Below the pieces are notes generated by a model. It was not told the origin of the DNA, ran no database searches, and saw only the letters and a program-made list of their open reading frames with translations. Positions 9,434-28,256 of a stretch of DNA of 33,406 nucleotides are shown one piece after another. The stretch lies in assembly GCA_001805885.1 (NCBI GenBank), contig MHHC01000020.1, forward strand, positions 1 to 33,406, written 5' to 3'. This stretch comes from Omnitrophica WOR_2 bacterium RIFCSPLOWO2_12_FULL_51_24. Its GTDB lineage: Bacteria; Omnitrophota; Gorgyraeia; Pluralincolimonadales; Pluralincolimonadaceae. The first letter of the stretch is position 1. Each line of letters starts with the position of its first letter. The position numbers were made by a program, and so were the translations under genes.

Positions 9434-9454
9434 TTTTTTAATAAGTGGTGTCAT

Positions 9455-10237
9455 ATGGCCAGATTCAAAATAGGATGCCATACCCTTACATGGGGTAATT
9501 ATTTAAGCGGCTACTCCATAAAGGATGCTCTTTGGGAGATAAAGGAAGCCGGCTATGACGGCGTGGAGATTTATGACCCGCTGACGAGGCTTGGCTCGGT
9601 TGCGGCGTTAAAGACGCAGCTTAACGAGCAGGGCCTTGAGTTGGCTACGTTATCCGCCGACATAAAGGTGACCGGTGATGAGAAAGCGGACCTTGCCGAG
9701 GCGAAGGAGAAGGTCTTCTTCGCCGGCCAATTCGGCGCGAAAGCGCTTATGACCACCGGCGGTTGGACCAACGACGGATTGAAGAAGGAAGCCAAGAGCT
9801 ACAAATCCCTCTGTAAAAGGCTTGATTTGCTGGCCGGGTATGCCTCGAAATTCAACATGCAGGTCGCCTTCCATAATCATCTGGATACCATAGTAGAGGA
9901 AGAGAGGGATATACTCAACCTTCTTGAATTCTCAAAGGCATTGAAACTATGTATCGATACCGGCCATCTGGCCGCGGTCGATGCGGACCCGGCCTATGTC
10001 ATAGAAAAATACGCTTCGTCGCTCGCGCTCGTGCACCTGAAGGACTGGGATCCGAAAATAAGGGATTTTGCAGAGCTGGGGCGGGGGATACTCGGCAACA
10101 GGATGAAGAATATCCTTGCAACATTGGAAAAGATTAATTATACTAACTGGATTATTGTAGAACTTGACAGGACTTCCATTACTCCGTTCGAAAGCGCGAG
10201 GATATCGCGCGATTTTCTTAGGGGGATAGGATATTAG
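9455..10237 (+). CDS. Sugar phosphate isomerase/epimerase, xylose-isomerase-like TIM barrel (AP_endonuc_2 superfamily)
   Basis: The track ORF starts inside tRNA-Leu at 9404. The in-frame ATG at 9455 (MARFKIGCHTLTWG...) is the plausible start. Typical pattern: GYDGVEI, FHNH, IDTGHL, VHLKD, and IIVELD metal-ligand strands. Confidence 0.85.
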   Translation: MARFKIGCHTLTWGNYLSGYSIKDALWEIKEAGYDGVEIYDPLTRLGSVAALKTQLNEQGLELATLSADIKVTGDEKADLAEAKEKVFFAGQFGAKALMTTGGWTNDGLKKEAKSYKSLCKRLDLLAGYASKFNMQVAFHNHLDTIVEEERDILNLLEFSKALKLCIDTGHLAAVDADPAYVIEKYASSLALVHLKDWDPKIRDFAELGRGILGNRMKNILATLEKINYTNWIIVELDRTSITPFESARISRDFLRGIGY

Positions 10238-10239
10238 AT

Positions 10240-11248: not shown

Positions 11249-11324
11249 GGCCCCTTCGTCTAGTGGCCCAGGACGGCAGCTTCTCAAGCTGTAGACACGG
11301 GTTCGATTCCCGTAGGGGCTACCA
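11249..11324 (+). tRNA. tRNA-Glu (anticodon CTC)
   Basis: The sequence GGCCCCTTCGTCTAGTGGCCCAGGACGGCAGCTTCTCAAGCTGTAGACACGGGTTCGATTCCCGTAGGGGCTACCA is colinear with canonical bacterial tRNA-Glu. The anticodon loop is TTCTCAA. CCA is encoded. Length is 76 nt. Confidence 0.9.
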
Positions 11325-13397: not shown

Positions 13398-13400
13398 AGA

Positions 13401-13414
13401 TGTTACCGCTCACA
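13401..13414. promoter_or_regulatory. LacI-family operator candidate (lacO-like pseudo-palindrome)
   Basis: The site is TGTTACCGCTCACA. Its reverse complement, TGTGAGCGGTAACA, differs from the E. coli lacO1 core TGTGAGCGGATAACA by one missing base. It lies directly 5-prime of a TTGACA box and 53 nt upstream of LacI gene 1. Confidence 0.5.
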
Positions 13415-13443
13415 TTGACAAAATATCGTTGATATGGTATTCT
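13415..13443 (+). promoter_or_regulatory. Possible sigma70-type promoter of the LacI-1/GH2 transcription unit
   Basis: A perfect TTGACA at 13415-13420, a 17-nt spacer, then TATTCT at 13438-13443, ending 23 nt upstream of the ATG at 13467. Confidence 0.35.
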
Positions 13444-13466: not shown

Positions 13467-14492
13467 ATGAAACGTTTCGATAAAGCCAGTGTGACAATAA
13501 AAGACGTTGCGAAACGGGCAGGGGTCGCTCATTCGACGGTCTCTCTTGTTATGAACGACCGCGAACACGTCTCGCCGAAATTGCGCGAACGCATCCTGAA
13601 GATCGCCAACGAGATGGGCTACATGCCCAATATAGTCGCGCGCAGCCTCATCAGCAAGAAATCTGCCACCGTAGGCGTAGTCTTTCCTGAGAATCCCCAC
13701 TTCTTTACCATGACGTACTTCCTTATGGTGATCGACGGCATCCAGAGCGCCTGCAAGAAATACGATAAGGCGATGATGTTCTTCAGCCTTGACCAGACCA
13801 AGGGAGAGTCCTATTACCAGTTATCCCGCAAATGGCTTATTGATCTTATGATCATCGTTAACATCGACTACACAAGAGACCTCTCGAAGGATATCCAGGA
13901 CCTGAAGGATCACGGCATAGCCTTCTCTTTTGTGACCAAATATATAGGTAAGGAGAAGGTCAATTCGGTCTGTGTCGATAACTTAGAGGGCGTGAGGTTG
14001 GCCCTCGAGCACCTGATCGCGCAGGGCCACAGGCGGATAGGATTCATAAGCGGTAATCCGAACTCGGCTGACGGCCCAGAGAGGCTGAACGCGTTCCAGA
14101 CCCTTTCGAAGAAGATGGGATTGGACCAGGACGAGGGCCTTATCGTCTACGGTGATTTCACCTTCGAGAGCGGCGAGAGAGAGGTTCCGAAACTCCTCGG
14201 GCTCAAGAAGCGGCCCACCGCGATATTCGCCGCGAGCGATTATATGGCTATCGGCGCGATGCGCGCCATGAAGGCGCAGGGGATCTCGATACCAAAGGAT
14301 ATAGCACTGATGGGATTCGATAACTCCCTCGAATCCGCATACGTTGAACCCGCGCTCACGACGATAAGACAGCCGCTCCAGGAGATGGGCGAGAAGGCTG
14401 TCGATCTCGCCATCCGCTCGCTGAACGAAGAGAACTTTGAACCCACCACCCTTATAATGAAACCGGAGCTCCTCAAGAGACAATCATGCTAA
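13467..14492 (+). CDS. LacI/GalR family transcriptional regulator (regulator 1)
   Basis: The N-terminal HTH is TIKDVAKRAGVAHSTVSLVMN. A periplasmic-binding-protein-like sugar-binding core follows (IGFISG, AIFAASDYMAIGAMRA, IALMGFDN). Its stop overlaps the GH2 start by 7 nt. Confidence 0.9.
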   Translation: MKRFDKASVTIKDVAKRAGVAHSTVSLVMNDREHVSPKLRERILKIANEMGYMPNIVARSLISKKSATVGVVFPENPHFFTMTYFLMVIDGIQSACKKYDKAMMFFSLDQTKGESYYQLSRKWLIDLMIIVNIDYTRDLSKDIQDLKDHGIAFSFVTKYIGKEKVNSVCVDNLEGVRLALEHLIAQGHRRIGFISGNPNSADGPERLNAFQTLSKKMGLDQDEGLIVYGDFTFESGEREVPKLLGLKKRPTAIFAASDYMAIGAMRAMKAQGISIPKDIALMGFDNSLESAYVEPALTTIRQPLQEMGEKAVDLAIRSLNEENFEPTTLIMKPELLKRQSC

Positions 14493-17400
14493 AGAGGATT
14501 TTTTCGTATTGTATACCGGCAGTTTTTTTATCGTTGTGTACGATCTTACCCGCCGGGACGACGCCGGTCCAGCCCCCTGCGCCTGAGACGCAGCCCGCGA
14601 CATTCGAAGTGAAAGAAATAGACGGCCTGTATATGCCGTTTCAGAACGGCATACCTTTCCCGTCGTGGGAGAAGCAGGACCATTTATATGTAGATCTAAA
14701 CGGCGCGTGGAAGGTCGAACGAAAAAGCGTCGACCATAAGCTCACGCTTTACAATAGGACGCCGGAGAACATAAAACTTGTCGAACGGGAGGGCGCAGAT
14801 AGGCATAAGGCCGAATACAATGATGGCGGATGGAAAGAAAAACAGATCCCGGGCGTAGAGAATCCCGCTCCGGACAGATATATGGACGGTGTATGGTACA
14901 GGCGCCATTTTACAATCCCCTCCGATGCGGCCGGAAAATACATAAAGCTCATGTTCGAGGCCGCGAATTATTTCACCGACGTCTGGATCAACGGGAAATG
15001 GATAGGCTGCCATGAAGGCGGTTATACTCCGTTTGCCTTCGATATAGGCCAATACCTTAACTACGGGCAGGATAACGTGATAGCCGTCCGCGTCGATAAT
15101 ATCCCATGGCTCCCCAACGGCGACAGCTCACCCGAGGCCCTCAAGACGAACGATCATAATATAGTACTGTATGCTACAGGCGACTGGTGGAATTACGGCG
15201 GGATAACCAGAAATGTGTATATAGAAATATCACCGTTAGTCTCTGTTGTCCGCGCTGATGTGAAGCCAAAACTCGTCGACGAGAAAAATTCTGAACTGAC
15301 GATAGATGTGGTTGCCTATAACCGGAGCGATGCCGAAGTCAACTCATCTCTGTCGCTTAAAGTCCTTCAAGCCAATGTAAAGGATAGCAATTTGGAGGAA
15401 GCGTCGGCAAAGAAGATGATTACAGGTAAAACCGTCTCCGTTCAGGGCGAGACCTCTAAACAGATAACCCTCAAGGCCGGCGAGGCAAAGGCATTCAGGT
15501 TCTCCCTGAAGTCAAGCGGACTCAAGCCCTGGTCGCCGGAGGCACCGAACCTTTATGTATTGCAGGTAAATCTCGGGGACAAAAAGACAAAATCAGATGA
15601 GTTCTATACGCAGTTCGGCGTCAGGGAGATCAGCGTCGATAAGGCTAACGCGAAACTTCTCCTGAACGGAAAAGAGGTTTTCCTCCGCGGTATCGCCCGG
15701 CACGCGGTATTCTACGGAGAGCCCGGCCCGCGGGTTTACGGTCCGGCCAGCATTGTCGAGGATTTCAGGCTCGCAAAAGATGCCAACGTGAATTTCGTAA
15801 GGACTGCCCATTACCCTAACCAGCAGGAGACTTACCTGATCGCCGACAGGATGGGCCTTCTTATTTGGGAAGAGATACCCGTTTTCTGGTTCGGCGGGCC
15901 GGAATTTTTAATCCAAAAGAATGTCCGCGGCATCGCAAGACAGATGTGGTTCGAGATGATATACCGCGATTATAACAGGCCTTCGGTCATAATCTGGAGC
16001 ACGTGCAACGAGTGCAGCTGGCAGGCGGAGAGAGCCGCTTTTATCAAAGACCTCAGGGAGAACGCCTACAAGGTCGACGGGACGCGCCTCGTAGCGCAAT
16101 CGGCCTCTGGAAGCGATCCGACGGATGCAACCCAGAAGGAATGCGACCTGCTGGGATTCACCACTTATTACGGGATATTCTACGGCGGTTCGTATGACGC
16201 TGACACGAAAGTCGCACTGGAGAAAGCGCATAAGGCGTTTCCCGACAAACCGATAATATCCACCGAATACGGCATGTGGGCACATTACGGGGATTTCCCG
16301 CAGGAGGAGGTACAGATCGAAGTGGCAAAGGAAACCTTCGGGGCCCTTAGGGAGTTTCCGTATGTTGCCGGCGCAACGTGGTGGACTATCGCCGATTGGC
16401 ACACGATGATAAACGAGCCGCAGACGATGGGCACGATGACGATCGACAGGAAATTACAGAAGCCGGTCTATTTTCAGCTGCAGCGGCAATATGGCTCGCT
16501 TTTAGGCGATTTGACGGTTGAGATCAAAGAGCCGACAGAAGGGCAGGCCTTAAATGGCAAGGTCGCCATATCGGCCGAGATAAAAGGGAGAGAGAAGCCT
16601 GAGGCCGTGGAACTGATTATCGAAGGGAAGTCTTTGGGCCGGCTCTCCCAGAAAAAAGACCTCTATCAGATGGAATTGGATACGACCAAGATATCGGAAG
16701 GCAGGCATACGTTTATCGTGCGCGCGAAAAGCAAGAAAGGTTACTATATCTCCGATTTCATCAGGGTCACCATCGATAATATTGACGGGCCTCCGACTAT
16801 CACGGCCAATCTGAAAGATCAAAATGTTGTGATGGGCAAGCTCTCCCTGAAAGCCGTCGCGACCGACGACAAGGTCGTCACCTCAGTCACCTATTCTGTA
16901 GACGGAGGAGAAGTCCTGCAGATGGAGAGCATAGGCGAGGGGGATTATCAGGCGACATGGGATGCCTCAGGGCTTCCGGATGGTTCCGCGCATGAGCTTA
17001 AATTCACGGCCACTGATACGGGGAACCAGACAGCCGAAGCTAAAGCCAAGGTGACAATCGATAACAAACCCGGCCAGTACGTGGGATTACCCTTTGACCA
17101 TGACTGGATCTCCTGGAATAAAAACCGCGGTGACGGTACGGGCTATGACTTCCCGGCCGAAGAGCTGCCGGACTCGAATTCCGAATTCATATTCAACGGC
17201 GCCGAGAAGGTAAAGTTCAGATTAGGCGAAAAGACCGACGGCGCAAAAAATAATGTCGAATGCAACAAACAAAAGATAGCTTTCGCCCCGGGTAATTATA
17301 CAAAAGTGCACATACTTGCCACTATGCATAACGGCGGGTCGAGACAACCGTTTATTCTCAACTATACCAACGGCACCTCCGAGAAGGTTGTGACCGGTTT

Positions 17401-19063
17401 TTCAGATTGGTGGGGAGGGAACCCTGTCTTCGGCGAAGAAACGGTCATGATGACTACACACCATCATGAAGTGGCCGCTGACAGAAAACCGGGCGTGGCG
17501 CTCTATATACAGACGCTGGAGCCCGACAAGAAGAAGATCCTTTCTTCTATTGGTTTGCCCGCGGATAAGAAGATCCATATTTTCGCGATGACCCTTGAGG
17601 GAGAAGTCTCGAACGTTCCCTTGCCCGAACCCGCCATAGTAGAGCCTAAATCTGACTCATCAGTGGGCGATGTGGTCAAAATCGTCGCGGAGGATAAACA
17701 GAAAAATATCGCAAAAGTCGAGTATTCCACGGACGGAGACGACTGGAGATCGATGACCCCCGCAGGAGACGGAACCTATACGGCCGATTGGGATACGACC
17801 AAATTAAAAGGCATAAACCACACTATAAACGTAAAGGCGACCGATAAGATAGGACAGATAAACATAAAGAGCATAAGCGTCAGGGTTGTAAATAAGGTCA
17901 CCATAGTATTTCCGTTTGAGGGCGCGAGCGTCTATAGGATGGCTACGCTCATGGTCGAACCGAGAGCTAACAAGGAAGTCGATAAAATAGAATATTCTAT
18001 CGATAACGGGCAGTTTATGCAGATGTCGCCCAATATGGGGTTATACACGGCCGAGTGGAAGATAGACGAAGGATATAAACCGGGCTCAGCCCATATGCTG
18101 ATAGTAAGGGAAATTGAGAAGGGCGGCGGGGTCACCATCGACACGGTCAAGGTCACGGCCGACACGGTCAAAATCATGATCGCCGAGCCGGTCAAGGGCC
18201 ATTCCATAAAGGTCGATAAGAATGTAAGGGATTGGGTCGGCGTTCCGCCGGAACAGGAGAACGCCGCGACGGTCAGTAACGGAGAATATATATGGAAAGA
18301 TGAGAAAAACGATGATACCGGGAACGGCCATTACACGTATCCGACGAATAGAGCGGTGAACAAAGGCGCGGACCTGCGGGAATTTAGGGTCACTTGGGAC
18401 AGCGAGAATCTCTATTTAATGATAAAATGCGATCGCCCCGGAGATTACTGGGCGCCTTACAGGATAATAGGGATAGACAAGGATGGCGCTAAAGGCGGAA
18501 ATAGCGGTACTCAGGTATTGGCACAGGTCAACTTAGATGACATTAGTCCTGACACTGGTTGCTACGGCAACCTTAAGGTCTCGCCGGAACTGGCTTGCGA
18601 ATACGCCATAGGGATATCCAATTCCTATAAGGGCCGCATCTGGGACGCGAAAGGAAAACTTATCGCTCGTAAGGAAGGCGATAACAATGATACGTCCGGA
18701 TTTCTGGTAGATGACGCGAATTGGAATGCCGTTGAGGTGGCTATCCCATTGAAACTTATAGGGGCAAGCCCGGCTCTCCTCTCGGGACAGACGTGGAGAT
18801 TTATAGTCGGAGTCGGCTTGCAAGATAACGAAATTTTCAGGAAAATAGATAAGGATGCGTCCGAGTGGCATGGAGGAGGAGGCGAGATAAACGGCTCGAA
18901 CCCCTATGTTTACGATCTTGCGAGCCCTGACAGGAAGACGCAGGAATATGAACTGAACAGCTACAAAAAGGAAGGTGACTCCGCGGATCCCGGCACGTTT
19001 GTGACCATCAGGAGGTCTTATCTGACCGTTACATTCAGCGACGAGGGGGCGAAGTCCCCATAA
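14486..19063 (+). CDS. Secreted 1525-aa multidomain GH2 glycosidase: GH2 catalytic core, two Ig-like domains, an unknown domain, two Ig-like domains, and a Glucodextran_C-like C-terminal module
   Basis: The signal peptide MLKRIFSYCIPAVFLSLCTILPAG is followed by a Pro/Thr-rich linker. The GH2 sugar-binding domain shows WYRRHFTIP and FEAANYFTDVWINGKWIGCHEGGYTPFAFDI. The TIM barrel shows VNFVRTAHYPNQQE, with acid/base WSTCNECSW (Glu about residue 509) and nucleophile ISTEYG (Glu about residue 594). See the domain features below. Confidence 0.85.
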   Translation: MLKRIFSYCIPAVFLSLCTILPAGTTPVQPPAPETQPATFEVKEIDGLYMPFQNGIPFPSWEKQDHLYVDLNGAWKVERKSVDHKLTLYNRTPENIKLVEREGADRHKAEYNDGGWKEKQIPGVENPAPDRYMDGVWYRRHFTIPSDAAGKYIKLMFEAANYFTDVWINGKWIGCHEGGYTPFAFDIGQYLNYGQDNVIAVRVDNIPWLPNGDSSPEALKTNDHNIVLYATGDWWNYGGITRNVYIEISPLVSVVRADVKPKLVDEKNSELTIDVVAYNRSDAEVNSSLSLKVLQANVKDSNLEEASAKKMITGKTVSVQGETSKQITLKAGEAKAFRFSLKSSGLKPWSPEAPNLYVLQVNLGDKKTKSDEFYTQFGVREISVDKANAKLLLNGKEVFLRGIARHAVFYGEPGPRVYGPASIVEDFRLAKDANVNFVRTAHYPNQQETYLIADRMGLLIWEEIPVFWFGGPEFLIQKNVRGIARQMWFEMIYRDYNRPSVIIWSTCNECSWQAERAAFIKDLRENAYKVDGTRLVAQSASGSDPTDATQKECDLLGFTTYYGIFYGGSYDADTKVALEKAHKAFPDKPIISTEYGMWAHYGDFPQEEVQIEVAKETFGALREFPYVAGATWWTIADWHTMINEPQTMGTMTIDRKLQKPVYFQLQRQYGSLLGDLTVEIKEPTEGQALNGKVAISAEIKGREKPEAVELIIEGKSLGRLSQKKDLYQMELDTTKISEGRHTFIVRAKSKKGYYISDFIRVTIDNIDGPPTITANLKDQNVVMGKLSLKAVATDDKVVTSVTYSVDGGEVLQMESIGEGDYQATWDASGLPDGSAHELKFTATDTGNQTAEAKAKVTIDNKPGQYVGLPFDHDWISWNKNRGDGTGYDFPAEELPDSNSEFIFNGAEKVKFRLGEKTDGAKNNVECNKQKIAFAPGNYTKVHILATMHNGGSRQPFILNYTNGTSEKVVTGFSDWWGGNPVFGEETVMMTTHHHEVAADRKPGVALYIQTLEPDKKKILSSIGLPADKKIHIFAMTLEGEVSNVPLPEPAIVEPKSDSSVGDVVKIVAEDKQKNIAKVEYSTDGDDWRSMTPAGDGTYTADWDTTKLKGINHTINVKATDKIGQINIKSISVRVVNKVTIVFPFEGASVYRMATLMVEPRANKEVDKIEYSIDNGQFMQMSPNMGLYTAEWKIDEGYKPGSAHMLIVREIEKGGGVTIDTVKVTADTVKIMIAEPVKGHSIKVDKNVRDWVGVPPEQENAATVSNGEYIWKDEKNDDTGNGHYTYPTNRAVNKGADLREFRVTWDSENLYLMIKCDRPGDYWAPYRIIGIDKDGAKGGNSGTQVLAQVNLDDISPDTGCYGNLKVSPELACEYAIGISNSYKGRIWDAKGKLIARKEGDNNDTSGFLVDDANWNAVEVAIPLKLIGASPALLSGQTWRFIVGVGLQDNEIFRKIDKDASEWHGGGGEINGSNPYVYDLASPDRKTQEYELNSYKKEGDSADPGTFVTIRRSYLTVTFSDEGAKSP
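14600..16516 (+). other. GH2 catalytic region (sugar-binding jelly roll, Ig-like sandwich, TIM barrel) of the 1525-aa protein
   Basis: Motifs are listed under the parent CDS. LWSPEAPNLY marks the end of the Ig-like sandwich. Boundaries are approximate. Substrate (beta-galactoside, beta-mannoside or beta-glucuronide) cannot be assigned by eye. Confidence 0.75.
16517..17065 (+). repeat. Two tandem Ig-like (bacterial Ig / Big-type) domains, protein-level repeat
   Basis: Each unit is about 90 aa and ends in VTIDN. The shared pattern is V..V.Y(S).DG.....M...G.G.Y.A.WD...L.DG.H.L...A.D. Similarity shows at protein level only. Boundaries are approximate. Confidence 0.6.
17066..17605 (+). other. Unassigned ~180-aa domain inserted between the Ig-like pairs (residues ~861-1040)
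   Basis: The domain runs KPGQYVGLPFDHDWISWNKNRGDGTGYDFPAEELPDSNSEFIFNG...VECNKQKIAFAPGNYTKVHILATMHNGG...FSDWWGG...IHIFAMTLEGE. It is probably a beta-sandwich. I cannot name a family. Confidence 0.4.
17630..18163 (+). repeat. Two further tandem Ig-like domains (copies 3 and 4)
   Basis: Copy 3 shows VKIVAEDKQKNIAKVEYSTDGDDWRSMTPAGDGTYTADWDTTKL. Copy 4 shows VDKIEYSIDNGQFMQMSPNMGLYTAEWKIDEGYKPGSAHML. Both follow the same pattern as copies 1 and 2. Boundaries are approximate. Confidence 0.6.
18197..19060 (+). other. C-terminal ~288-aa Glucodextran_C-like module of the GH2 protein (paralogue copy 1)
   Basis: It starts at GHSIKVDKNVRDWVGVPPEQ. The motif EYIWKDEKNDDTGNGHYTYPTN....GADLREFRVTWD resembles the D.(G)DD.G.G.YTYP......DL..F.V signature I associate with the Pfam Glucodextran_C family. 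It is colinear with the two downstream proteins all the way to the C-terminus. Confidence 0.6.
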
Positions 19064-19080
19064 AAAGGAGGTGCAGTAAA

Positions 19081-20061
19081 ATGGGCAGAGTAGCGTTATT
19101 TTTAGTGATTGGGCTGGTATTTTCGTCTGTATGTTTTGCCGAGGATGCTGCGGAGCCTGCGGCTACAGCCGTAAAAGCTCTTACTGTCGATGAAGCGGGG
19201 AAGATCCCGGTTACCGGGCACACCATCGCGGCCGACAAGAATATAAGAGACTGGACAGGCGTAGCTCCGGAACAGGAGAACTCAGCCGCGGTGAGCAATG
19301 GAGAGTACATATGGAAGGATGCGGCGGGCGATGATGCAGGAAGCGGAAGTTATACTTATCCCCTGGATAAGGTGCTCAAGAAAGGCGCGGACCTGAAAGA
19401 ATTCAGGGTGACATTTGATAAGGATAACCTTTATCTCCTGATCAGGACCGACAGGCCCGGAGACTGGTGGACCGGTTTCAAGATAGTAGGGATACATAAA
19501 GAAGGGGCCGCCGGCGGGACAGAGGTCTTGGCGCAGGGTGATATGGATGAAGGCGGTTTCGATTCAGGCACTTTCGCCAATCTGAAAGTCGCGCCCGCAC
19601 TTGCTTGTCAGTATGTCGTGGCGATCTCCTCGAGTTATAAGGGCCGTATTTATGACGAGAAGGGCAAGGTGATAGCCCGCAAAGAGGCGCAGCCGGATGA
19701 TACACCAGGGTTCAAGGTCGATGACTTTAACTGGAATGCGATCGAAGTCGTTATTCCGTTGAAGCTAATAGGCGTGCCCCAAGGGGCTAGTCCAGCAGGA
19801 GAGACGTGGAAATTCATTATTGCTACAGGTCAGCAGGATAGCGATGTCGCCCGAAGGGTCGAGGCGACGCAAAGCCAGTATCATGGCGGCGGCGGAGCTG
19901 AAGTCAACGTGAATCCGAATGTCTATGATTTAGCCGGGTCCGACAAGGCTACGCAGGAGAAAGAACTGGGTAGTTTTGATCCTAACGCGCAAGAGGGCGA
20001 TCCGAAAGGTTTCGCAACTATCGGGAAATCGTTCTTGACGGTTAATTTCGGTTCGAAATAA
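19081..20061 (+). CDS. Secreted stand-alone Glucodextran_C-like module protein (326 aa, paralogue copy 2)
   Basis: A strong SD, AAGGAGGTG, lies at 19068-19076. The signal peptide is MGRVALFLVIGLVFSSVCFA/ED. The mature part aligns end to end with GH2 residues ~1238-1525: GHTIAADKNIRDWTGVAPEQENSAAVSNGEYIWKD, YTYP, ADLKEFRVTFD, QYHGGGG, YDLAGSD, and KSFLTVNF. Confidence 0.8.
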   Translation: MGRVALFLVIGLVFSSVCFAEDAAEPAATAVKALTVDEAGKIPVTGHTIAADKNIRDWTGVAPEQENSAAVSNGEYIWKDAAGDDAGSGSYTYPLDKVLKKGADLKEFRVTFDKDNLYLLIRTDRPGDWWTGFKIVGIHKEGAAGGTEVLAQGDMDEGGFDSGTFANLKVAPALACQYVVAISSSYKGRIYDEKGKVIARKEAQPDDTPGFKVDDFNWNAIEVVIPLKLIGVPQGASPAGETWKFIIATGQQDSDVARRVEATQSQYHGGGGAEVNVNPNVYDLAGSDKATQEKELGSFDPNAQEGDPKGFATIGKSFLTVNFGSK

Positions 20062-20091
20062 CAGGTCTATTTTTGTAGAAAGGGCAGGAGG

Positions 20092-21054
20092 ATGAGAAGG
20101 AAGCCTATTTTTTATCTGGTATTGGTATCTCTTTTCCTGCTCTGCTCTCCCGCTGATGCGGGAGAGACGTACGGAACCCTATCCGGCCATTCCATAAAGG
20201 TAGACGGTTCGGTATCCGACTGGGTCGGTGTCGCTCCGACCAAGCTTGATACGGGAACGATAAGCAAAGGCGAATTCATATGGGAAGACGCCTTAGGCGA
20301 CGACACCGGAAACGGCAGATACACCTATCCCAAAAATCCCGCCATGGCAAGAGCTGCTGATCTCAAGGAGTTCAGGGTCACATGGGACAGTAGGAACGTT
20401 TATTTTCTTATTAAGATGACAATGCCCGGCGAGTGGTGGGCCCCTTACCGAGTTATCGCCGTAGACACCGACGGCGCCGGTGGCGGCAGAAAAGGCATGA
20501 GGGTGATACAGCAGGGTGACATCGATACGATGGATTCGGATAGCGGTACGTTCGGCGAGTTGAGGGTCTCAAGTTCGCTTGCCGCCGATTACGTTATTGT
20601 CATATCCGGAACGTATAGAGGTATGATCTGGGACGCGAAGGGGAGACTTGTCGCAAAGACCTCCGGCGAAAAGACCGATACGCCCGGTTTCAAGATCAAG
20701 GATTCAAACGTGGCTACTATCGAGATCCAGGTGCCGCATAAGATAATAGGGAATCCCCAGGGAAGGATCTGGAGATTTATCGTCGCGACCGGCATCGAGG
20801 ACCATGGGCACGTCCGGGAGATATACAGGGAAGCGGAGGAATGGCATGGCGGCGGCGGCGAGAATACGGTCGCCGAAGACGGAGTGGACCCAGATTTCTA
20901 TGACCTCGCCAGCCCGGACCAGAACACGCAGGAGATAGAACTGGCGGGCTATGGGGCGAACGCGCCGGCCGGCGAGAGCCGATCATTCACAGAGATAAAG
21001 AAATCATATTTGGAAATAAAGTTCTCCCCATTTTTGAGTTCGACTCCCAAGTGA
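20092..21054 (+). CDS. Secreted stand-alone Glucodextran_C-like module protein (320 aa, paralogue copy 3)
   Basis: The signal peptide is MRRKPIFYLVLVSLFLLCSPADA/GE. The protein shows GHSIKVDGSVSDWVGVAP, GEFIWEDALGDDTGNGRYTYP, ADLKEFRVTWD, EWHGGGGE, YDLASPD, and KSYLEIKF. It is colinear with copies 1 and 2. Confidence 0.8.
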   Translation: MRRKPIFYLVLVSLFLLCSPADAGETYGTLSGHSIKVDGSVSDWVGVAPTKLDTGTISKGEFIWEDALGDDTGNGRYTYPKNPAMARAADLKEFRVTWDSRNVYFLIKMTMPGEWWAPYRVIAVDTDGAGGGRKGMRVIQQGDIDTMDSDSGTFGELRVSSSLAADYVIVISGTYRGMIWDAKGRLVAKTSGEKTDTPGFKIKDSNVATIEIQVPHKIIGNPQGRIWRFIVATGIEDHGHVREIYREAEEWHGGGGENTVAEDGVDPDFYDLASPDQNTQEIELAGYGANAPAGESRSFTEIKKSYLEIKFSPFLSSTPK

Positions 21055-21060
21055 CCTCAA

Positions 21061-21078
21061 TATGTTATCGATAACATA
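21061..21078. promoter_or_regulatory. Perfect 18-bp palindromic LacI-family operator candidate
   Basis: TATGTTATC|GATAACATA is a perfect inverted repeat with a central CG. It fits the LacI/GalR operator consensus (TGnnAnCGnTnnCA). It ends 2 nt before the ATG of LacI gene 2. It shares the TGTTA(T/C)C half-site with the 13401 site and with the right half of lacO1. Confidence 0.6.
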
Positions 21079-21080: not shown

Positions 21081-22094
21081 ATGAAGAAAGTAACCTTTAA
21101 AGAGATCTCCAAGATAGTCGGCATATCCCCGATGCACGTATCCAGGGCCCTGGCCGGGCATCCTTACGTCAAGGAAGAACTGCGCCGGCGGATATTCAAG
21201 GTTGCCAAAAAGCTCAACTACAGCGTAAACCCCTTCGGCCGCGGCCTCTCGAAGAACATCCAGATGAAGGCGCGCATGATATGTATCCTGACCAAATACG
21301 AAAACTTCTTTCGGACAGAATATTTCATCAACCTGATGGACGCTATCAGCGACAATTGCAGGGCGAAGGGATACGACGTAATAATAGTAAGCCTTAACGA
21401 CAACGAACCGGAGAACATAAAGAGGCTCAAGAACCTGGTCAATTATCATAAGGCGGGCATAATAGAGGGGTTTGCCTTTATCGCGCCCGACCTTGAAGCT
21501 CCGGAAGGGATCTTCCTGCACGGCGAGAAAGTAAATTTCGTATGTGTAGGAGACAGGATAGTCGCAGAGACGAAATATGTCGATGTCGATAATTTCCGGG
21601 CGGGTTTTGAGGTAGGGGAATACCTGGTCGGACTAGGACACAAGAAGATCGGTTTCGTGAGGGGTCCGGGCAATAGGTATGACACCCATGTGAGGTATCA
21701 GGGTTTCTTAAACGCCCTCCAGGCGAAGGGGCTCAGGCCGGAACAGGGCCTTATAGTGAACGGGGATTATAAGGCCGCTGGCGGAAAAAAAGCGACGGCG
21801 ATATTATTTTCACAAAAGAAAAGACCCGACGCAGTATTTTATGCTAACGACCTCATGGCCTACGGCGGCCTCGAGTTCTTTAAAGAAAAAAAGATAAAGG
21901 TACCGCGGGATGTATCGATAGTAGGTTTTGACGATCTTGCGGCGTCGTCCAAGACCGAGCCTCCGCTCACGACACTCAGGCAGCCGTATGGGGAGATGGG
22001 CGAAGCGGTCACCGAGGCTGTATTGGACCCGAATTTTGTGTCAAAGAGTATCGCGGCGAAATTAATAATAAGGAAGAGTTGCGACAGGTTATAG
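21081..22094 (+). CDS. LacI/GalR family transcriptional regulator (regulator 2)
   Basis: The N-terminal HTH is TFKEISKIVGISPMHVSRALAG. The sugar-binding core shows IGFVRGPG, AVFYANDLMAYGGLEF and SIVGFDD. No Shine-Dalgarno sequence is visible upstream. Confidence 0.88.
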   Translation: MKKVTFKEISKIVGISPMHVSRALAGHPYVKEELRRRIFKVAKKLNYSVNPFGRGLSKNIQMKARMICILTKYENFFRTEYFINLMDAISDNCRAKGYDVIIVSLNDNEPENIKRLKNLVNYHKAGIIEGFAFIAPDLEAPEGIFLHGEKVNFVCVGDRIVAETKYVDVDNFRAGFEVGEYLVGLGHKKIGFVRGPGNRYDTHVRYQGFLNALQAKGLRPEQGLIVNGDYKAAGGKKATAILFSQKKRPDAVFYANDLMAYGGLEFFKEKKIKVPRDVSIVGFDDLAASSKTEPPLTTLRQPYGEMGEAVTEAVLDPNFVSKSIAAKLIIRKSCDRL

Positions 22095-22103: not shown

Positions 22104-25100
22104 ATGAGGAGAACGGCCGCATACAAGATCGGCAATGATAACGAGTTTATCATCGAGAACTACAACTACTCAAAGGCCTTTTCGAGTTTTTTGCCCGGTA
22201 TAGCCGGAGTGGACGGGATCCCGATGTGGGTCTTTTATGTGAACAGGAATCAGGCGGTCTGCAGCCTGGGCATAGAGAGCAAAGACCGCGCGATGATGGA
22301 ATTCCTGCCGGCGAATTTCGCGTATCAGCTGGTCGGGACGCAAGGCTTCAGGACTTTTATCAAGATAAGGGTCAAGGGTGGATTTACTTTATATGAGCCG
22401 TTCCGGATATACGAGAAAGAAGAGAGATACATCCCGTCCCAGACGATGATAATAACCCCTTATTCCGTCATACTCAAGGAAATCCACGAGAGACTGGGAA
22501 TAAGCGTCGAAATCAAATACTGCAATGTAGTGCAGGAACCGTTCCCCGGCCTGATAAGGCAGGTGGAGATAAAAAATATCTCCAAACGGCCGATAAAGAT
22601 CGAACTCCTCGACGGTATCCCGCGGGTCATCCCGTTCGGGATGGATGATGTCAGCCTCAAGAGGATGAAATACCTCGTCAGATCCTTTAGTTTCGTAGAG
22701 AACCTCGAAAAAATGATCCCATATTTTCACATCAGGACGACCCACGAAGACGGCCCCGAGGTCGCGATGGTGAAGAGGGGACATTACTATGCATGCGTCA
22801 AAGTGGACGGCAAGAAGGCGGAGCTGAAGCGTCCCCTGGTCGATACCTCGCAGATCTTCGGCACGAGGGAGGACCTTATCTTTCCTTCAAAATTTAACGT
22901 CAAGTCCAAATTTGCATACGATCTTAAGAATGAGCTCACGAGCGGCGAATTTTCTTCCGCTATGTGCTACGAGAATATTACGCTCAGGCCGTCGGAGGCG
23001 CTTGCCTTATACTGCGCCTGCGGGACCCTTGACTCTCTCGGCGATACAGAGAAGGTCGCGCGCGCCCTTACTGCGGATTTTGCGGAGATACAGCTCGAAA
23101 GGAACAGGGTCCTTATTGAATCGATAATGAGCTGTTCTTTGATCGTAAGCGAAAATGAGAAATTCGACAGGTATTCCGTTCAGAATTTTCTCGATAACGT
23201 TTTAAGAGGCGGCTTCCCGATAGCAGTGGCCAAGGATAGAGGCAAGGTATTCTATGTCTATTCCAGAAAACACGGCGACCTGGAAAGGGATTATAATCAG
23301 TTCTACCTCTCGCCTACCGTCTATTCCCAGGGTGATTCCAATTACAGGGACGTGAATCAAAATAGGCGCAATGATGCGTTCTTCAATCCCGATGTCGGGA
23401 TGACCAATATAGTGAATTTCGTAAATCTCATACAGATCGACGGGTTCAATCCGCACGGCGTGGGCGGGATGTCCTTTGTATACAAAGGGGGCAAGGTCCT
23501 GAGCGAAGCGAAGGGCACGGTCCTTAGCGAAGCTAAGGGCAAAAAACTCCTTATAGATATCTTCAGTAGAGCAGCCGACAGGATGGATGAATTTCTCAAA
23601 AACCCTTTCACCCCCGGCGACATCTTCAAGTTCATCGACTCCGATTCGATAAAGCCGGCCGTATCAAAAGAGGAGATGCTCTCCCGGATACTTGAGAATT
23701 CCGACGCGATCCAGAATTCACAGCATAGCGACGGGTTCTGGAGCGACCACTGGCATTATAACATGGACCTCATCGACAGCTTCCTTGCGGTATATCCGGA
23801 CAGGAGGAAAGAGCTCTTCTTTGATCGCAGGGATTTCACATTCCACGACGGCCCTTGCATAGTGCTTCCGAGGGAGGATAAATACGTTGTCTGGGACGGC
23901 AAACCTATCCAATTGGGCGCGGTGAGGATCGACGAAGAAAAGAAGAAAATGATTTCCGGCAGGAAGTCGGACAAGACGCTCGTTCGCAAAGTAAACGGCA
24001 AAGGCGATATCTACAGAACGAACCTCATAACGAAACTTTTCATCATCGCGGTCAACAAGATAAACTCCATCGGGCCGGACGGCTGCGGCATCGAGATGGA
24101 GACAGATAAGCCAAACTGGTATGACGCGTTAAACGGCCTGCCTGGTCTCTTCGGCTCGTCCTCCAACGAGACATTCGAGTTAAAGAGACTCATCAGTATG
24201 ATCTCGAAAAACCTCAACGCGAACGTTGACGAGAACGTTGACAACGCCGCTCTCGAGCTTCCCGAGGAGGTTGCCGATATCGTTAGAAGTTCCAGGGGTA
24301 TCTTAAGCGATTATCTCGACGGAAGATTAGACGATTTCGGCGTATGGGATAAGCTGACCGCGATAAAAGAGGATTTCAGGAAGAAGGTGAAGTTCGGGAT
24401 AATCGGCAGGCTGGTCCCGGTCCCGGCTGACGAGCTCTCCGAATACCTTATAATTGCGGGTAAGAGAATACAATCCGCAATAAACAAAAGTTTTGACGAG
24501 AAGACCGGGCTTTATTCCGGATATTTCATCAATATCCCCGCCGAATACGAACAGATCACCTATGTCGACAACTCCGGGAAAGAAGTGCCGAAGATAAACC
24601 ACAAAGGTCTTCCATGCATAAAAGTCATGAAGTTCAATTCGAGACCGCTGCCGTTATTCCTGGAGGCGCAGGTCCACGCGCTTAAAGTGGAGGAGGATAA
24701 GTCGGTCGCGGCGAAGCTGCACCGCAATCTGATGAAGAGTGATCTGGTTGACAAGAAGCTTAAAATGTTTTTCGTGAATGCCTCGCTAGAAAAAGAACCG
24801 TATGAGATAGGCAGGACAAAGACCTTCAATCCGGGCTGGCTGGAGAACCAATCGATCTGGCTGCACATGGAATACAAATATATGCTTGAACTCCTGAAGG
24901 CCGGGCTTTATGAGGACTATTATGAGAACTTAAAGAACGTGCTCGTGCCTTTCCTGAAGCCCGAGGTCTACGGGCGCAGCATATTCGAAAATTCATCGTT
25001 TATCGCAAGCAGCGTCCATCCCGACAGGAAGGTCCACGGCCAGGGGTTCTACGCGAGGCTCTCCGGTTCGACCGCGGAATTCGTCCATATGTGGCTTATA

Positions 25101-25466
25101 ATGGTTACCGGCGGCAAGCCGTTTGCGCTGGATGGGAACGGTAAACTGGTATTCAGCCTCTCGCCGGCCTTGAAGGGCGATATGTTCCTTAAAAAGGACC
25201 GCAAGGTCAGTTATTATTCTCCCTGCGGGAAATTACGCGAGGAGACGGTAAAGAAGGGCACGGTGAAATTCATCTTCCTGGGAAAGATCCCCGTGACTTA
25301 CGTCAACCCCAAGGGAAGAGATATATTCGGGAAGAGCGAGGGAGCCAAGTATCTGGTGACGCTCGAGGATGGCACTACAAAGGAATTTACCGGCAGCGTC
25401 CCCGGGCCGTACGCGGATCTTATAAGAGAGAGAAAAATAAAAGAGATAAAGGTGTTCTTCAACTAG
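22104..25466 (+). CDS. Uncharacterised 1120-aa cytoplasmic protein; possibly a distant (alpha/alpha)6-barrel glycoside phosphorylase/hydrolase (GH94-like)
   Basis: GGAG lies upstream and there is no signal peptide. Notable motifs are [25 protein letters not shown] near the N-terminus, [13 protein letters not shown], and [13 protein letters not shown] at residue ~670. The last recalls the DWND(C/A)LN catalytic-Asp motif of GH94 phosphorylases. [13 protein letters not shown] follows. The assignment rests on motif resemblance only. Confidence 0.7.
   Translation: [1120 protein letters not shown]
23493..23540 (+). repeat. In-frame 24-nt tandem duplication (KVLSEAKG / TVLSEAKG)
   Basis: The two units are aaggtcctgagcgaagcgaagggc and acggtccttagcgaagctaagggc. 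They match at 21 of 24 positions. Two of the three differences are synonymous. Confidence 0.85.
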
Positions 25467-25484: not shown

Positions 25485-28256
25485 GTGAATAAGGGTGTTG
25501 TTTCTTTCGACAGAAAGAGCATGATCATAGGCGGAGAACGCGTGTTGCTCTACGGCGGAGAGTTCCATTACTTCCGCGTGCCGCATGAATTATGGGAAGA
25601 CAGGCTTCAGAAGATGAAGGCGGCGGGCTTAAACCTCGTCGCGACGTATATACCGTGGAATTTCCACGAGACGAAAGAGGGCGAATTTAATTGGGCGCGC
25701 GACCGCGATCTCGAGAAATTCATAACACTGACCGAGAAATACGGGTTTTATCTTGTCATAAAGCCGGGCCCGTATATCTGCGCGGAGTGGGATTCCGGCG
25801 GGTTCCCGGATTGGCTCTTGGCCAAAAAAATAAATCTGCGCGAAGACGATCCCAAGTATCTTAAGATTGTCGGCAAGTATTATAAGGAGATCGCAAAGAT
25901 CCTCAGGCCGCATCTGATCACTAAAGGCGGCAACATTATATTGTTCCAGATAGAGAATGAATACGACCACCTCATAGCATTCAGCGGCGTAAAGAGATAC
26001 AGGGACAACGCGCTGCGCTATCACCTTAAATTGCTCAAGATGGTGCGTAAGACGGGTATAGACATTCCGACTTTTGCGGTCGAAGGAAGTTTCTTGAGAA
26101 AGAGCGAGATAATCGACGCGAGGACGTATTACCCGAACATCCCGTGGATATGGCTGTGGGAGTTCAACGATTTCGACAAGGCGATAGACGCCTCGGTCGC
26201 GGAACAGCCCAAAAAACCCCTGATGATAATGGAGCTCGAGACCGGCTGGTTCGCGCAGTTCGGCAGACCTCTCTATCAGATAGAGCCGGAGGTCACGAGG
26301 GCGATACTTAGGACGGTCATAGCCGAGGGCGCGTCAGTAATGAACCAATTCCTGTTTGTCGGCGGCACGACATTCCCTTATTGGAACTGCAAGGGCGACT
26401 TAGACGGTATAGGCACCTGCACTACGTATGATTTCGGCCATTCGCCTATAAGGGAGTGGGGCGAGGTCTCTCCGACAAAATATCACATGGCCCGCAATAC
26501 CGCGCAGTTCCTCGATTCGTTCGAGGACGTGCTTTTCGAGGCGGAGAAGAAGGAGGGCGCGGCAAAGTTTATCGACGCCGGCAATACCGTGGCGCTCGTA
26601 GACCGGAAGAAGGGCGCGGTCAAGCCCGACTTCTCGGGGACTTTCGAGAACGTCAAAGTCGTCGAAACGGCCGGGAGGAAGGGCGGATTCATCATGATCC
26701 GCAATCTCACGGAAGATACCCACAGGGTCCAGATAGAATATTTTTCTCCGGCAGAGAAGAGGAACAAGAGGCTGCCCATGAAAGGGGACCTTGAGCTTGG
26801 CCCCCGGTCTTCATTCCTCTTACCCATCGATATACCCATAGGCGATGGGGGTATGGTACTGAAACAGTCGACATGCGAGCTCCTGTTGAGGAAAAAGATC
26901 GGCAACGATGAATTTGTGTTTCTCGTCGGAAAGTCGGAACTTAAAAGCAGGACCTATCTCAAATGCGGTTCCGCGAAACCGGTGGTCGTCGAGGGCGATT
27001 TCAGGGTAGAGAAGGCCAGGGACGGTTATATCATAGAGAACGATAACGGGGGGCTCCGCATAATAAAGGTGGGCGGGGTCTTTTTCGTATTCCTTGACGA
27101 TAAAAAGGCCGCAAGGGTATGGGACAGGCAAGAGGCGGTAGTGGTCAGCGATTACTATTATATCGGGGATATCCTCGTCGACCGGAAGTCCATCGGCATA
27201 AGCGCGCAGGTCAAGAACGGCAGCAACCAGCGCACGAGGATATTTACGGCCTTCGTGCCCAAGGCGATAAGGATCAACAACGTGAAGGTGAAATTCAAAT
27301 ACGACAAGGAGACCGGGTCGGCGACTTTCGAGTATGATTGCGCCGTGGAAGAGCTTCCGAAAATAACATGGCTTGACTCTCCCCGGTTCATCTCTGACAT
27401 CGAAGAGAAAGAATGCGGTTATAACGATTCATCGTGGAAGACGATAGCCTTGCCGAAGGCGCTGGAACAGGCAGGATTCCTGGAGCACGGTTTTATCTGG
27501 TACAGGCAGAAGTTCGGACTAAAGGGCAAACCGTCAGAGTGCCGCGCGAAGATCGTGACCAACGACATAGACAGGTTCTATGTCTATATAAACGGTGAAT
27601 TCATCTGGCGCGGGATAGGGAGCCCCGATCTTGATATTACGGGGGCCGTAAAGAAGGGCGAGAACGTCCTTGCCGTAAGGTATGAGAACGCCTATCACAC
27701 AAAGGCGCATCCGCATGAAGGGCCGATAAAAAAGCTGAGCGGCATAATGCAGCCGGTGAAGATACACGGCAGGGCATCCGGCAGGGCCTTTAGCATCATC
27801 CTGAAGAAGATGCTTATACGCGAAAGGGCGGGCGGCTTGATCAAGGGCTATCATAAATCCGAATGCAGCGAGAGCGGATGGAGGGTTTCGCCTCCGGCGA
27901 AGAAATACGTATTCGCGAAGGATATGGGCGAGCTCCTATGGTACAGGCGGAAGTTTAAGCTCTTGCCCCGCAAGGGCGGCGTCTGTGCCCTCAAGCTTAC
28001 GATAGACCACGCCTTAGAGAGATGCGTCATATATCTGAACGGGAGAGCGCTCGGCAAATACGAGTCGGTCGGGCCGCAGAACGATTTTTACATCCCGGAG
28101 CCGTTCCTGCGCAATGAGAATACGCTCGCGATCCTCATCGAGGGGCCGGGTTTCCACCCGGTCAAGGAATCCGGTTTCATGCCGCCGGTCCTGAAGGACC
28201 CGAAGATAGGTTTCTACTACACCGCGAAACTGTTGAATGTGAGAATATCCGGATAA
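25485..28256 (+). CDS. GH35 beta-galactosidase (923 aa, cytoplasmic), with C-terminal beta-sandwich (galactose-binding-like) domains
   Basis: GTG start with AGGAGG at 25474-25479. The GH35 pattern is classic: [60 protein letters not shown], acid/base FQIENEYD, and nucleophile region [11 protein letters not shown]. There is no signal peptide. The C-terminal WYRQKF and WYRRKF jelly-roll-like segments are repeated. Confidence 0.88.
   Translation: [923 protein letters not shown]

Follow-up and report, generated by a model that had tools for sequence, protein, structure and literature searches.

A full-length GH161 glycoside phosphorylase beside a GH35 gene in an Omnitrophota glycan locus

Results

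The window analysed here is the whole 33,406-nt stretch of contig MHHC01000020.1 from Omnitrophica WOR_2 bacterium RIFCSPLOWO2_12_FULL_51_24. At the centre of its glycan locus lies a GH161 glycoside phosphorylase gene (22104..25466, + strand) of 1120 codons plus stop, with an ATG start and no internal stops. The open reading frame is a real gene because full-length homologues are found, at 99, 87, 85, 79, 69 and 57% identity and with thousands more at about 40–45%. The gene for LacI-family regulator 2 (21081..22094, +; Pfam LacI plus Peripla_BP_3/1/4) ends 9 nt upstream, and 18 nt downstream follows a GH35 β-galactosidase-like gene (25485..28256, +; 923 aa; Pfam Glyco_hydro_35, E=8.6e-84) that starts with GTG at 25485, preceded by AGGAGG. 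The intact reading frame and both gaps had been given in a preliminary description of this DNA, and the coordinates 22094 and 25485 bear the gaps out. Ahead of the regulator gene we found a perfect 16-bp palindrome, ATGTTATCGATAACAT (21062..21077, no strand assigned), a candidate LacI-family operator of the LacI2–GH161–GH35 unit. The palindrome search gave 3 matches where 0.14 were expected, and the same type of palindromic site occupies the same place in three related loci (L001, L002, L009).

Further upstream, a second unit (13467..21054, +) encodes LacI-1, a secreted GH2 and two secreted Glucodextran_C proteins, as read from Pfam matches and signal-peptide-like N-termini. The GH2 protein has 1525 residues and a C-terminal SLH-like Glucodextran_C module (Pfam); this surface-anchored enzyme is closest to β-glucuronidases and β-galacturonidases. 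The three β-galactosidase-class neighbours are as described before, with a GH35-like gene at 11352, GH2 at 14486 and GH35 at 25485, next to two LacI genes. Searched with Pfam, the window contains no GH1/GH3 β-glucosidase, no GH16/17/81 endo-β-1,3-glucanase and no sugar transporter. It thus departs from the typical, although not defining, GH161 neighbourhood, offering GH35, GH2 and a GH35 GlmA-like protein without a transporter.

The GH161 protein is cytoplasmic, as proposed earlier: its N-terminus lacks a signal-like segment, and no transmembrane segment was found, the highest 19-residue Kyte–Doolittle mean being 1.25.

The 1120-residue protein belongs, along its whole length, to CAZy family GH161, which forms clan GH-Q with GH94 and GH149. 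Against the PDB, phmmer matched 9qqk_A ('GH161A') at E=4.7e-191 and 9h8v_A at E=1.9e-190 (residues 10–1028), and family profile A1 aligned positions 12–1107 to residues 3–1037 of 9qqk with 1043 bits, i.e., over the full length. The next PDB sequence match after GH161 was GH149 6hq6 (E=7e-19; 1.2e-33 with the profile), and no GH94 chain was reached by phmmer or by the profile at E<=0.01. The protein had seemed to belong to an unknown family because GH161 has no model in Pfam or NCBIfam. The Pfam search returned nothing apart from a spurious sub-threshold MBD hit, and the sole NCBIfam match was GH149 (NF058639), whose score of 118.1 bits falls far below the equivalog cutoff of 1150 and leads us to reject GH149 membership. 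GH94 membership is rejected as well, with no Pfam GH94 match at E<=1 and with similarity at the level of the fold only (10–14% identity).

Homologue searches yielded 563 clusters (50% identity) at E<=1e-30 and >5800 proteins at E<=1e-20, and the top homologues shown are mostly named 'hypothetical protein' or 'cellobiose phosphorylase'. The blank Pfam result, the sub-threshold GH149 score and the many 'hypothetical protein' names could suggest that the protein founds a new CAZy family of phosphorylases or hydrolases active on β-galactosides. To this reading we assign practically no chance. It is refuted by the phmmer, profile and Foldseek matches to GH161, which are full length and highly significant in sequence as in structure to solved enzymes of a family founded in 2019 (PMC6484121). 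Of the earlier proposal of a new phosphorylase or hydrolase family, the phosphorylase part hence stands and the novelty falls, given this confident match to a characterised family.

The AlphaFold (AF2) model (pLDDT 88.6, pTM 0.91) shows the GH161 architecture in order. An N-terminal β-sandwich domain, mostly β-strand (22104..23033, +; about residues 1–310), is followed by a helical linker (23037..23210, +; about residues 312–369; helices 312–321, 326–345 and 352–369), a helix-rich catalytic (α/α)6-type domain with inserted subdomains (23211..25112, +; about residues 370–1003) and an all-β C-terminal β-sandwich (jelly-roll) domain (25113..25463, +; about residues 1004–1120); the boundaries of the N-terminal and catalytic domains are approximate. 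The same domain order has been published for GH161 and GH149 (bioRxiv 10.1101/2025.04.05.647330; PMC6771811). With Foldseek, the model matched 9gy9_A (TM 0.86/0.93) and 9qqk_A (TM 0.86/0.92), both GH161 structures released in 2025, and GH149 and then GH94 (laminaribiose, cellobiose and chitobiose phosphorylases) ranked below. The GH94 matches, at TM about 0.5–0.8, agree with the original guess of an (α/α)6-barrel phosphorylase. The catalytic domain matched its GH161, GH149 and GH94 counterparts, and the C-terminal domain was aligned by the family profile to the 9qqk C-terminus, up to residue 1037. Model confidence is low (pLDDT<50) in the catalytic loop 669–680, in loop 391–402 and in segment 465–472. 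Into the last of these falls an in-frame 24-nt tandem duplication in a surface loop (23489..23542, +; TRF period 24, 2.2 copies); the homologue at 87% identity is 19 residues shorter than the window's protein.

All five blocks that had looked conserved by eye (residues 26–50, 412–432, 543–553, 669–686 and 914–931) contain columns invariant in 93 homologues. In the catalytic loop W672-Y673-D674 (24117..24125, +), D674 is the predicted general acid. The loop aligns with the WND loop W651-N652-D653 of GH149 Pro_7066 (6hq6) (PMC6771811), and the likeness between NWYDALNG and the catalytic-acid motif of GH94, noticed earlier, is real homology. W672 and D674 are invariant in the 93 sequences, while the middle residue is Y, F, C, N or D across the family; the W-Y-D form is shared by 9qqk, which was deposited with a β-1,3 gluco-oligosaccharide. 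The S387-R388-K389-H390-G391-D392 motif (23262..23279, +) contributes conserved Arg and His residues to the active-site region, aligns with SRRHGD of 6hq6 and is invariant at R388, H390, G391 and D392, as are R395, R421 and R422 (93 sequences). The RD motif R415-D416 (23346..23351, +), predicted to recognise the sugar 1-phosphate, aligns with 'nwRD' of 6hq6, numbered R470-D471 in the paper (PMC6771811). Counterparts of R345 and R373 of THA_1941 can be assigned only tentatively, the published spacing being 28 and that in the family 27.

The E914-N-Q916-S-I-W-L-H921 block (24843..24866, +) contains a predicted sugar-binding Glu, a predicted phosphate-site His and the clade-specific E916Q. Two putative phosphate-binding serines, S965 in S964-S965 (24993..24998, +) and S987 in R985-L986-S987 (25056..25064, +), were assigned by spacing as equivalents of S891 and S913 of THA_1941. 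The E914–S965–S987 spacings of 51 and 22 equal those of E840–S891–S913, a mapping by motif spacing and not by direct alignment (bioRxiv 10.1101/2025.04.05.647330). R415-D416, E914, H921, S965 and S987 show no or almost no variation in the 93 homologues, and R985 and L986 are invariant. THA_1941 mutants of R345, R373, D625 and E840 were inactive (bioRxiv 10.1101/2025.04.05.647330).

The window's protein belongs to a clade with eight co-occurring substitutions, R190Y, E193K/R, A194S, N411D, D657G, E916Q, L961F and V983Y, at positions conserved in most other GH161 members. The clade forms one cluster at 50% identity, with the next relatives at 43%. Q916 is confined to it, with E in 78/78 other sequences, and position 657 is G in the clade and D in 78/78 others; in 9qqk, sites 916, 657 and 411 are occupied by the consensus E, D and N. 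Three of the changes adjoin active-site motifs: E916Q lies two residues from E914, N411D borders the RD motif and V983Y borders R985/S987. The acceptor subsites may therefore differ from those of characterised enzymes.

From this signature, which is unique to the clade, one might argue that the enzyme still performs inverting phosphorolysis, with a shifted specificity that exposes or releases galactose for the GH35 β-galactosidase. Its substrates could carry a glucosyl unit in β-1,3 linkage on galactose or on some acceptor other than glucose, or they could be oligosaccharides in need of prior uncapping by GH35; formation of Gal-1-P from a galactosyl donor would be less likely. In agreement with this, an alignment with human GLB1 shows both the catalytic and the galactose-binding residues conserved in the GH35 partner, whose galactosidase-type −1 signature is thus intact, the window combines GH2 and GH35 enzymes without a β-glucanase or β-glucosidase, and GH35 is not mentioned in the founding GH161 paper (PMC6484121). 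Against it, the donor-sugar and phosphate residues known from GH149 or THA_1941 (R415-D416, W672, D674, E914, H921, S965, S987) are all unchanged, which makes a galactosyl donor unlikely.

The loci of relatives also weigh on this question. The GH161–GH35 pair recurs in L001–L007, L009, L010, L012, L014, L027 and L042, where the GH161 sequences of L004, L007 and L010 duplicate those of L003 or L006, and the upstream unit (LacI-1, GH2, Glucodextran_C) is kept 5′ of the GH161 gene in L001–L004 and L008–L010. In distant lineages and several phyla, a GH35 gene of ~920 codons lies downstream of GH161, in the slot held by GH3 in sister loci of β-glucan type; neighbours in the sister clade are GH3, GH16 and GH30. 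However, the 57% homologue, a clade member with the full eight-residue signature, adjoins GH3 and a laminarinase-type GH16 (3azx, E=3e-78), and clade member L008 (76%) has no GH35. A second GH35-linked clade has the consensus residues at the signature positions, and the GH35 partnership is therefore independent of the substitutions. The 45% homologue adjoins an ABC importer and three GH30 genes; one of these, when tested, was nearest to PDB 5ngk (E=1e-76). The typical GH161 neighbourhood is thus found in relatives L005 (GH3, GH16) and L006 (ABC importer, GH30). On balance we consider a shifted specificity unlikely, though worth keeping in view. Action on galacto-oligosaccharides, as first suggested, is unsupported, since the protein retains the active-site motifs of the clan (the catalytic Asp loop, RD, E914 and the phosphate-site residues) and GH35-bearing relatives adjoin the laminarinase-type GH16 and the GH30 nearest 5ngk.

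In roughly 20 of the 80 genome loci, each under an Omnitrophota or Planctomycetales MAG title, GH161 sits in a conserved housekeeping-like neighbourhood and not in a glycan locus; in representative sequences the neighbours look like gatA, gatB, tsaD, lepA and lepB. Such contexts, the lack of a transporter in the window and the reversibility of the reaction, by which characterised GH161 enzymes make long β-1,3-glucans in vitro (PMC6484121; bioRxiv 10.1101/2025.04.05.647330), could point to a mainly synthetic role, or one on an endogenous polymer, in which intracellular or cell-associated β-1,3-glucan is built or recycled from Glc-1-P. We regard this as very improbable. The copies in housekeeping contexts fall in another clade than the window copy, which is embedded in a LacI-controlled unit together with exo-glycosidases and a secreted GH2, as is typical of catabolic loci; moreover, homologous loci contain ABC importer genes.

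Discussion

The window protein is an ordinary GH161 enzyme of an already established family. Its function is probably the phosphorolysis of imported β-1,3-gluco-oligosaccharides to α-glucose-1-phosphate. We infer this phosphate-dependent cleavage from homology and the gene neighbourhoods in relatives; the characterised members PapP and THA_1941 are β-1,3-glucan phosphorylases (PMC6484121; PMC8140972). What counts against a β-glucan substrate is the choice of partners in the window, two GH35-type proteins and a surface-anchored GH2 with no β-glucanase, and the GLB1-type galactose-binding signature of the GH35 is not needed by a pure β-glucan pathway.

By homology to GH161, the reaction would be an inverting phosphorolysis by single displacement. 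Conserved R388 and/or R415, H921, S965 and S987 would hold inorganic phosphate, which would attack C1 of the non-reducing-end β-linked glucose in subsite −1 while the departing glycosidic oxygen takes up a proton from D674 in the W-Y-D loop. As a result, α-D-glucose-1-phosphate and an oligosaccharide shortened by one unit would be released. The likeliest substrate would be an imported β-1,3-linked gluco-oligosaccharide of the laminari-oligosaccharide type. The GH161 gene is apparently co-transcribed with its own LacI-family repressor and the GH35 exo-glycosidase, and in such a division of labour GH35 presumably strips a sugar refractory to the phosphorylase, be it a cap, a branch or a limit disaccharide.

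We may also speculate, although we think it improbable, that the Omnitrophota clade represents a subfamily of GH161 whose acceptor specificity is new or that its GH35 partner has an activity undescribed for GH35. In the first case, GH161 and a dedicated GH35 exo-glycosidase may form an obligate pair for a mixed glucose/galactose (or uronic-acid-capped) oligosaccharide, which the surface-anchored GH2 may release. In the second, the ~920-residue GH35 may do something new for its family, e.g., hydrolyse laminaribiose.

Naming the protein correctly as GH161 turns an apparent orphan at the locus centre into a defined energy-saving step that provides Glc-1-P without ATP cost. The gene also gives one of the rare carbohydrate-use traits that can be read in Omnitrophota, a candidate phylum for which our homologue searches contained metagenome-assembled genomes only. 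It raises the questions of why a glucan phosphorylase should have so constant a companion in a galactosidase-like GH35 and whether the changed residues of the clade affect substrate choice.

Compared with known GH161 enzymes (9gy9; 9qqk/9sr2/9h8v; Paenibacillus polymyxa PapP; Thermosipho africanus THA_1941 = TaBGP), the window protein has the same order of four domains, the W-x-D loop and the cytoplasmic location, and it shares the RD motif and the Glu, His and Ser phosphate-site residues with characterised members. Identity is 34% to 9gy9 and 9qqk in Foldseek structural alignment and about 41–45% to most of the homologues from other clades. Its clade has the eight substitutions, and the window gene adds the surface-loop duplication. 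Published GH161 loci contain GH1, GH3 or GH30 β-glucosidases, GH94 and an ABC transporter (PMC6484121), whereas the partners here are GH35 and GH2. The GH149 β-1,3-oligoglucan phosphorylase Pro_7066 (6hq6/6hq8) is of the same clan and fold (TM about 0.72), with alignable catalytic loop, RD motif and SR(R/K)HGD motif (PMC6771811), but at about 16–17% identity; its own features are two extra domains (Dom 1 and Dom 2) and a W-N-D loop (PMC6771811). The GH94 laminaribiose (6gh3/6ggy), cellobiose (3qde/2cqs), chitobiose (1v7v) and cellodextrin (5nz7) phosphorylases share the architecture, the (α/α)6 catalytic domain and W-x-D, with TM to target of 0.57–0.80, and at 10–14% identity this kinship is one of clan and not of family.

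Assignment to family GH161

The 1120-residue protein encoded at 22104-25466 is a member of GH161, as its match to solved structures of this family is unambiguous. Compared with the sequences of solved structures, it aligned to 9qqk/9sr2 ('GH161 phosphorylase', 'GH161A') with E=4.7e-191 and to 9h8v with E=1.9e-190 over residues 10-1028, and to the GH149 enzyme Pro_7066 (6hq6) with E=7e-19. A profile of 17 family sequences aligned positions 12-1107 to 9qqk residues 3-1037 with 1043 bits; hence the C-terminal ~90 residues also belong to the family architecture. AlphaFold2, given 93 homologues, yielded a confident model (mean pLDDT 88.6, pTM 0.91), which Foldseek matched to 9gy9 (TM 0.86/0.93) and to 9qqk, described as 'GH161 phosphorylase in complex with beta-1,3 glucooligosaccharide' (TM 0.86/0.92). 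After the GH161 structures followed GH149 6hq6 (~0.72), then GH94 enzymes: laminaribiose phosphorylase at a TM to target of 0.78-0.80 and, last, the phosphorylases for cellobiose, chitobiose and cellodextrin at 0.57-0.73.

The Pfam scan yielded nothing usable, with one spurious MBD match, and the sole NCBIfam match was the GH149 model at 118 bits, far under its cutoff of 1150, which explains why the protein had seemed unplaceable. The preliminary description had seen a protein of unknown family with a faintly GH94-like catalytic motif, perhaps a new family of phosphorylases or hydrolases. Motif and phosphorylase assignment hold, but the novelty claim falls with the match to solved GH161 structures, a hit to a characterised family being what the description itself had named as contrary to it. 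The protein thus adds a divergent new member to a family already known.

Among its named relatives, the nearest belong to metagenome-assembled genomes (MAGs) of Candidatus Omnitrophota. More than 5800 proteins of a 90%-clustered collection matched at E<=1e-20, the top matches mostly being named 'hypothetical protein' or 'cellobiose phosphorylase', and 563 clusters of a 50%-clustered library matched at E<=1e-30. In the latter, the Omnitrophota clade that holds the protein, here called the window clade, is a single cluster (63%), the next relatives standing at 43%. Archaea have GH161 homologues as well: those of Pyrococcus and Thermococcus isolates share 57-59% identity with a Thermotogaceae enzyme, and a further one is in a Hodarchaeota MAG (locus L084; proteins P0153, P0155, P0159, P0160). 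This suggests inter-domain transfer among thermophiles. Furthermore, in some 20 loci from MAGs with Omnitrophota or Planctomycetales in their titles (within L016-L087), GH161 mostly has a W-F-D loop and in many lies outside any glycan locus, in a conserved neighbourhood read by eye as gatA, gatB, a C-terminal protease, tsaD, lepA, lepB and plsY. Such housekeeping-like neighbours hint that the enzyme may there serve the metabolism of endogenous glucan.

The gene and its locus

The reading frame on the forward strand is uninterrupted, with an ATG start and 1120 codons plus stop. A gap of 9 nt separates it from the LacI-family gene upstream (21081-22094), and one of 18 nt from the GH35 gene downstream (25485-28256), whose GTG start is preceded by AGGAGG. 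The protein's N-terminus is hydrophilic and the top 19-residue Kyte-Doolittle mean only 1.25; by these two measures, therefore, neither a signal peptide nor a membrane segment was found. All five protein blocks quoted in the preliminary description were recovered, each with residues invariant in 93 aligned homologues, so that its account of the frame, the neighbours and their spacing, the missing export signals and the blocks is borne out throughout. Full-length homologues at 99, 87, 85, 79, 69 and 57% identity indicate a real gene under selection. An in-frame 24-nt tandem duplication at 23489-23542 adds eight residues in a surface loop modelled at pLDDT<50; it looks harmless. The 99% homologue is 1120 residues long, and the 87% homologue is 19 residues shorter. 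GC content is roughly even across the window (0.48-0.55) and thus gives no sign of recent transfer.

The glycan locus consists of two units, each headed by an operator-like palindrome. ATGTTACCGCTCACAT at 13400-13415 lies ahead of the first LacI gene and abuts a promoter-like TTGACA-17-TATTCT; the perfect 16-bp ATGTTATCGATAACAT at 21062-21077 lies 3 nt ahead of the start of the second. Both keep their position in related contigs and are probably LacI-family operators that mark two regulated units. Unit 1 comprises LacI-1, a secreted 1525-residue GH2 protein carrying an SLH-like Glucodextran_C module at its C-terminus, and a pair of secreted Glucodextran_C proteins; LacI-2, GH161 and GH35 make up unit 2. 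The same arrangement recurs at 99, 79, 76, 70 and 69% GH161 identity.

Several neighbours deserve mention in their own right. The GH2 protein (region 14486-21054) has a signal peptide, Big_7 domains and the SLH-like module, features that make its display on the cell surface probable. Among solved structures it is nearest to a GH2 beta-galacturonidase and to beta-glucuronidases, not to LacZ. In every related locus it is followed by two or three secreted proteins of ~320 residues with the Glucodextran_C module alone. A second GH35-like protein (11352-13397; 681 residues, GLMA_2nd domain) is nearest to archaeal GlmA-type exo-beta-glucosaminidases and an Ignavibacterium GH35 beta-1,2-glucosyltransferase rather than classical beta-galactosidases; in two related loci its slot holds a DUF5060 protein (L002) or an ABC permease (L003). 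The Rfam scan of the window found three tRNAs only (8577-8647, 9346-9430 and 11249-11321), none inside the GH161 gene. Since they overlap tRNAs, the mechanical frame 8584-9165 and the GTG start called at 9404 are probably wrong. The tRNA at 11249 forms the left edge of the glycan locus. Just upstream, at 9404-11244, an iolE-like, xylose-isomerase-like TIM-barrel protein adjoins a GFO/IDH/MocA oxidoreductase, a pair that recalls glycoside 3-dehydrogenase or inositol-type pathways of sugar oxidation.

Catalytic machinery

A 10-residue segment of the catalytic loop aligned to the W651-N652-D653 loop of Pro_7066, in which the Asp is predicted to be catalytic, and SNYRD aligned to its RD motif R470-D471, which recognises the sugar phosphate (PMC6771811). 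From the loop alignment, D674 is the predicted general acid. In THA_1941, a characterised thermophilic GH161, the glucose moiety of Glc-1-P forms hydrogen bonds with W623, N624, D625 and E840, its phosphate is bound by R345, R373, S891 and S913, and mutants of R345, R373, D625 and E840 are inactive (bioRxiv 10.1101/2025.04.05.647330). The sequences of THA_1941 and PapP were absent among the homologue matches listed; equivalents of the THA_1941 residues were mapped by motif spacing. The spacing E-51-S-22-S, equal to that of E840/S891/S913, is constant in every family member in which the motifs were found and thus gives E914, S965 and S987. Invariant in 93 sequences were W672, D674, R388, H390, D392, R415, D416, E914, H921, S965, R985 and S987.

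The middle residue of W-x-D, N624 in THA_1941, is Tyr in our protein, in 9qqk and in most of the family, with Phe, Cys, Asn and Asp also seen. As a specificity marker it was rejected, since Tyr versus Asn neither splits the family nor tracks GH35 or gene context; W-Y-D is common to 9qqk and to loci linked to GH3, GH16 or GH30.

The GH35 partner and the likely substrate

Neighbours of GH161 genes were typed by tblastn in 87 loci (80 from a genome scan, 7 from earlier look-ups) and arranged on a neighbour-joining tree. A GH35 gene of ~920 codons lies directly downstream of GH161 in two clades: the window clade, including its 57% member L005, and a second one from Verrucomicrobiota, Kiritimatiellia and other lineages (L006, L012, L014, L027, L042). 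Beside the window (GH35 at 25485-28256), the pair occurs in L001-L007, L009, L010, L012, L014, L027 and L042, across several phyla, with identities down to ~42-45% for GH161 and ~37-40% for GH35. L008, a window-clade member, has neither GH35 nor LacI-2. In a sister clade with MAGs from Cloacimonadota, Neomarinimicrobiota (Marinimicrobia) and Lentisphaeria, the GH35 slot is taken by GH3 in several members; GH30 is nearby in most and GH16 also in some.

The L005 locus carries GH3 and a GH16 clearly of laminarinase type (3azx, E=3e-78). In the L006 locus, an ABC importer is accompanied by three GH30 genes, and the single one compared had as its nearest match 5ngk (E=1e-76), the Bacteroides beta-1,6-glucanase BT3312, which the PDB labels 'glucosylceramidase'. 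Both loci thus point to a beta-1,3/1,6-glucan, which supports the default GH161 activity, beta-1,3-glucan phosphorolysis. We also considered beta-1,3-galactan or type II arabinogalactan, with GH30 as beta-1,6-galactanase, GH16 as beta-1,3-galactanase and GH161 as galactan phosphorylase; the laminarinase type of the L005 GH16 and the 5ngk match of the L006 GH30 led us to reject it as the main reading. The GH35 partner itself has a galactosidase-type active-site signature by alignment, though L005 and L006 hold beta-glucan-type enzymes: compared with human GLB1, the equivalents of Y83, A128-E129, N187-E188, E268 and Y333 are kept, and Y306 to Phe is the sole change.

When the 15 members of the window clade were compared with 78 other homologues, the whole clade differed at eight sites where most of the remaining family is conserved (R190Y, E193K/R, A194S, N411D, D657G, E916Q, L961F, V983Y). 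All 78 non-clade homologues have Asp at 657 and Glu at 916, and at the four sites checked in 9qqk (equivalents of N411, D657, E916 and V983) the residue is that of the consensus. The eight substitutions co-occur, are unique to the clade as a set, and several adjoin active-site motifs: N411 is four residues ahead of the RD motif, E916 two past the sugar-binding E914, and V983 two ahead of R985. A signature common to all GH35-linked GH161s was sought as well; A194S alone qualifies, being shared with the second GH35-linked clade. The clade-specific residues may line the acceptor subsites, and mainly for this reason we keep an altered specificity as a rather unlikely alternative; a cytoplasmic beta-1,3-glucan phosphorylase remains our preferred reading.

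Comparison with the families of clan GH-Q

GH161 dates from 2019, when it was defined on the Paenibacillus polymyxa enzyme PapP and joined GH94 and GH149 in clan GH-Q; GH35 is unmentioned in this founding paper (PMC6484121). The interest of the protein lies in the undescribed GH161-GH35 pairing and in the clade signature. All three families act by single displacement with inversion (PMC8140972). From this shared mechanism, the enzyme would be expected to convert oligosaccharide(n) and Pi to alpha-D-glucose-1-phosphate and oligosaccharide(n-1). Every testable defining feature of GH161 is present in the protein, and it failed the membership tests for both GH94 and GH149. These two families are hence its kin at the level of the clan, not of the family.
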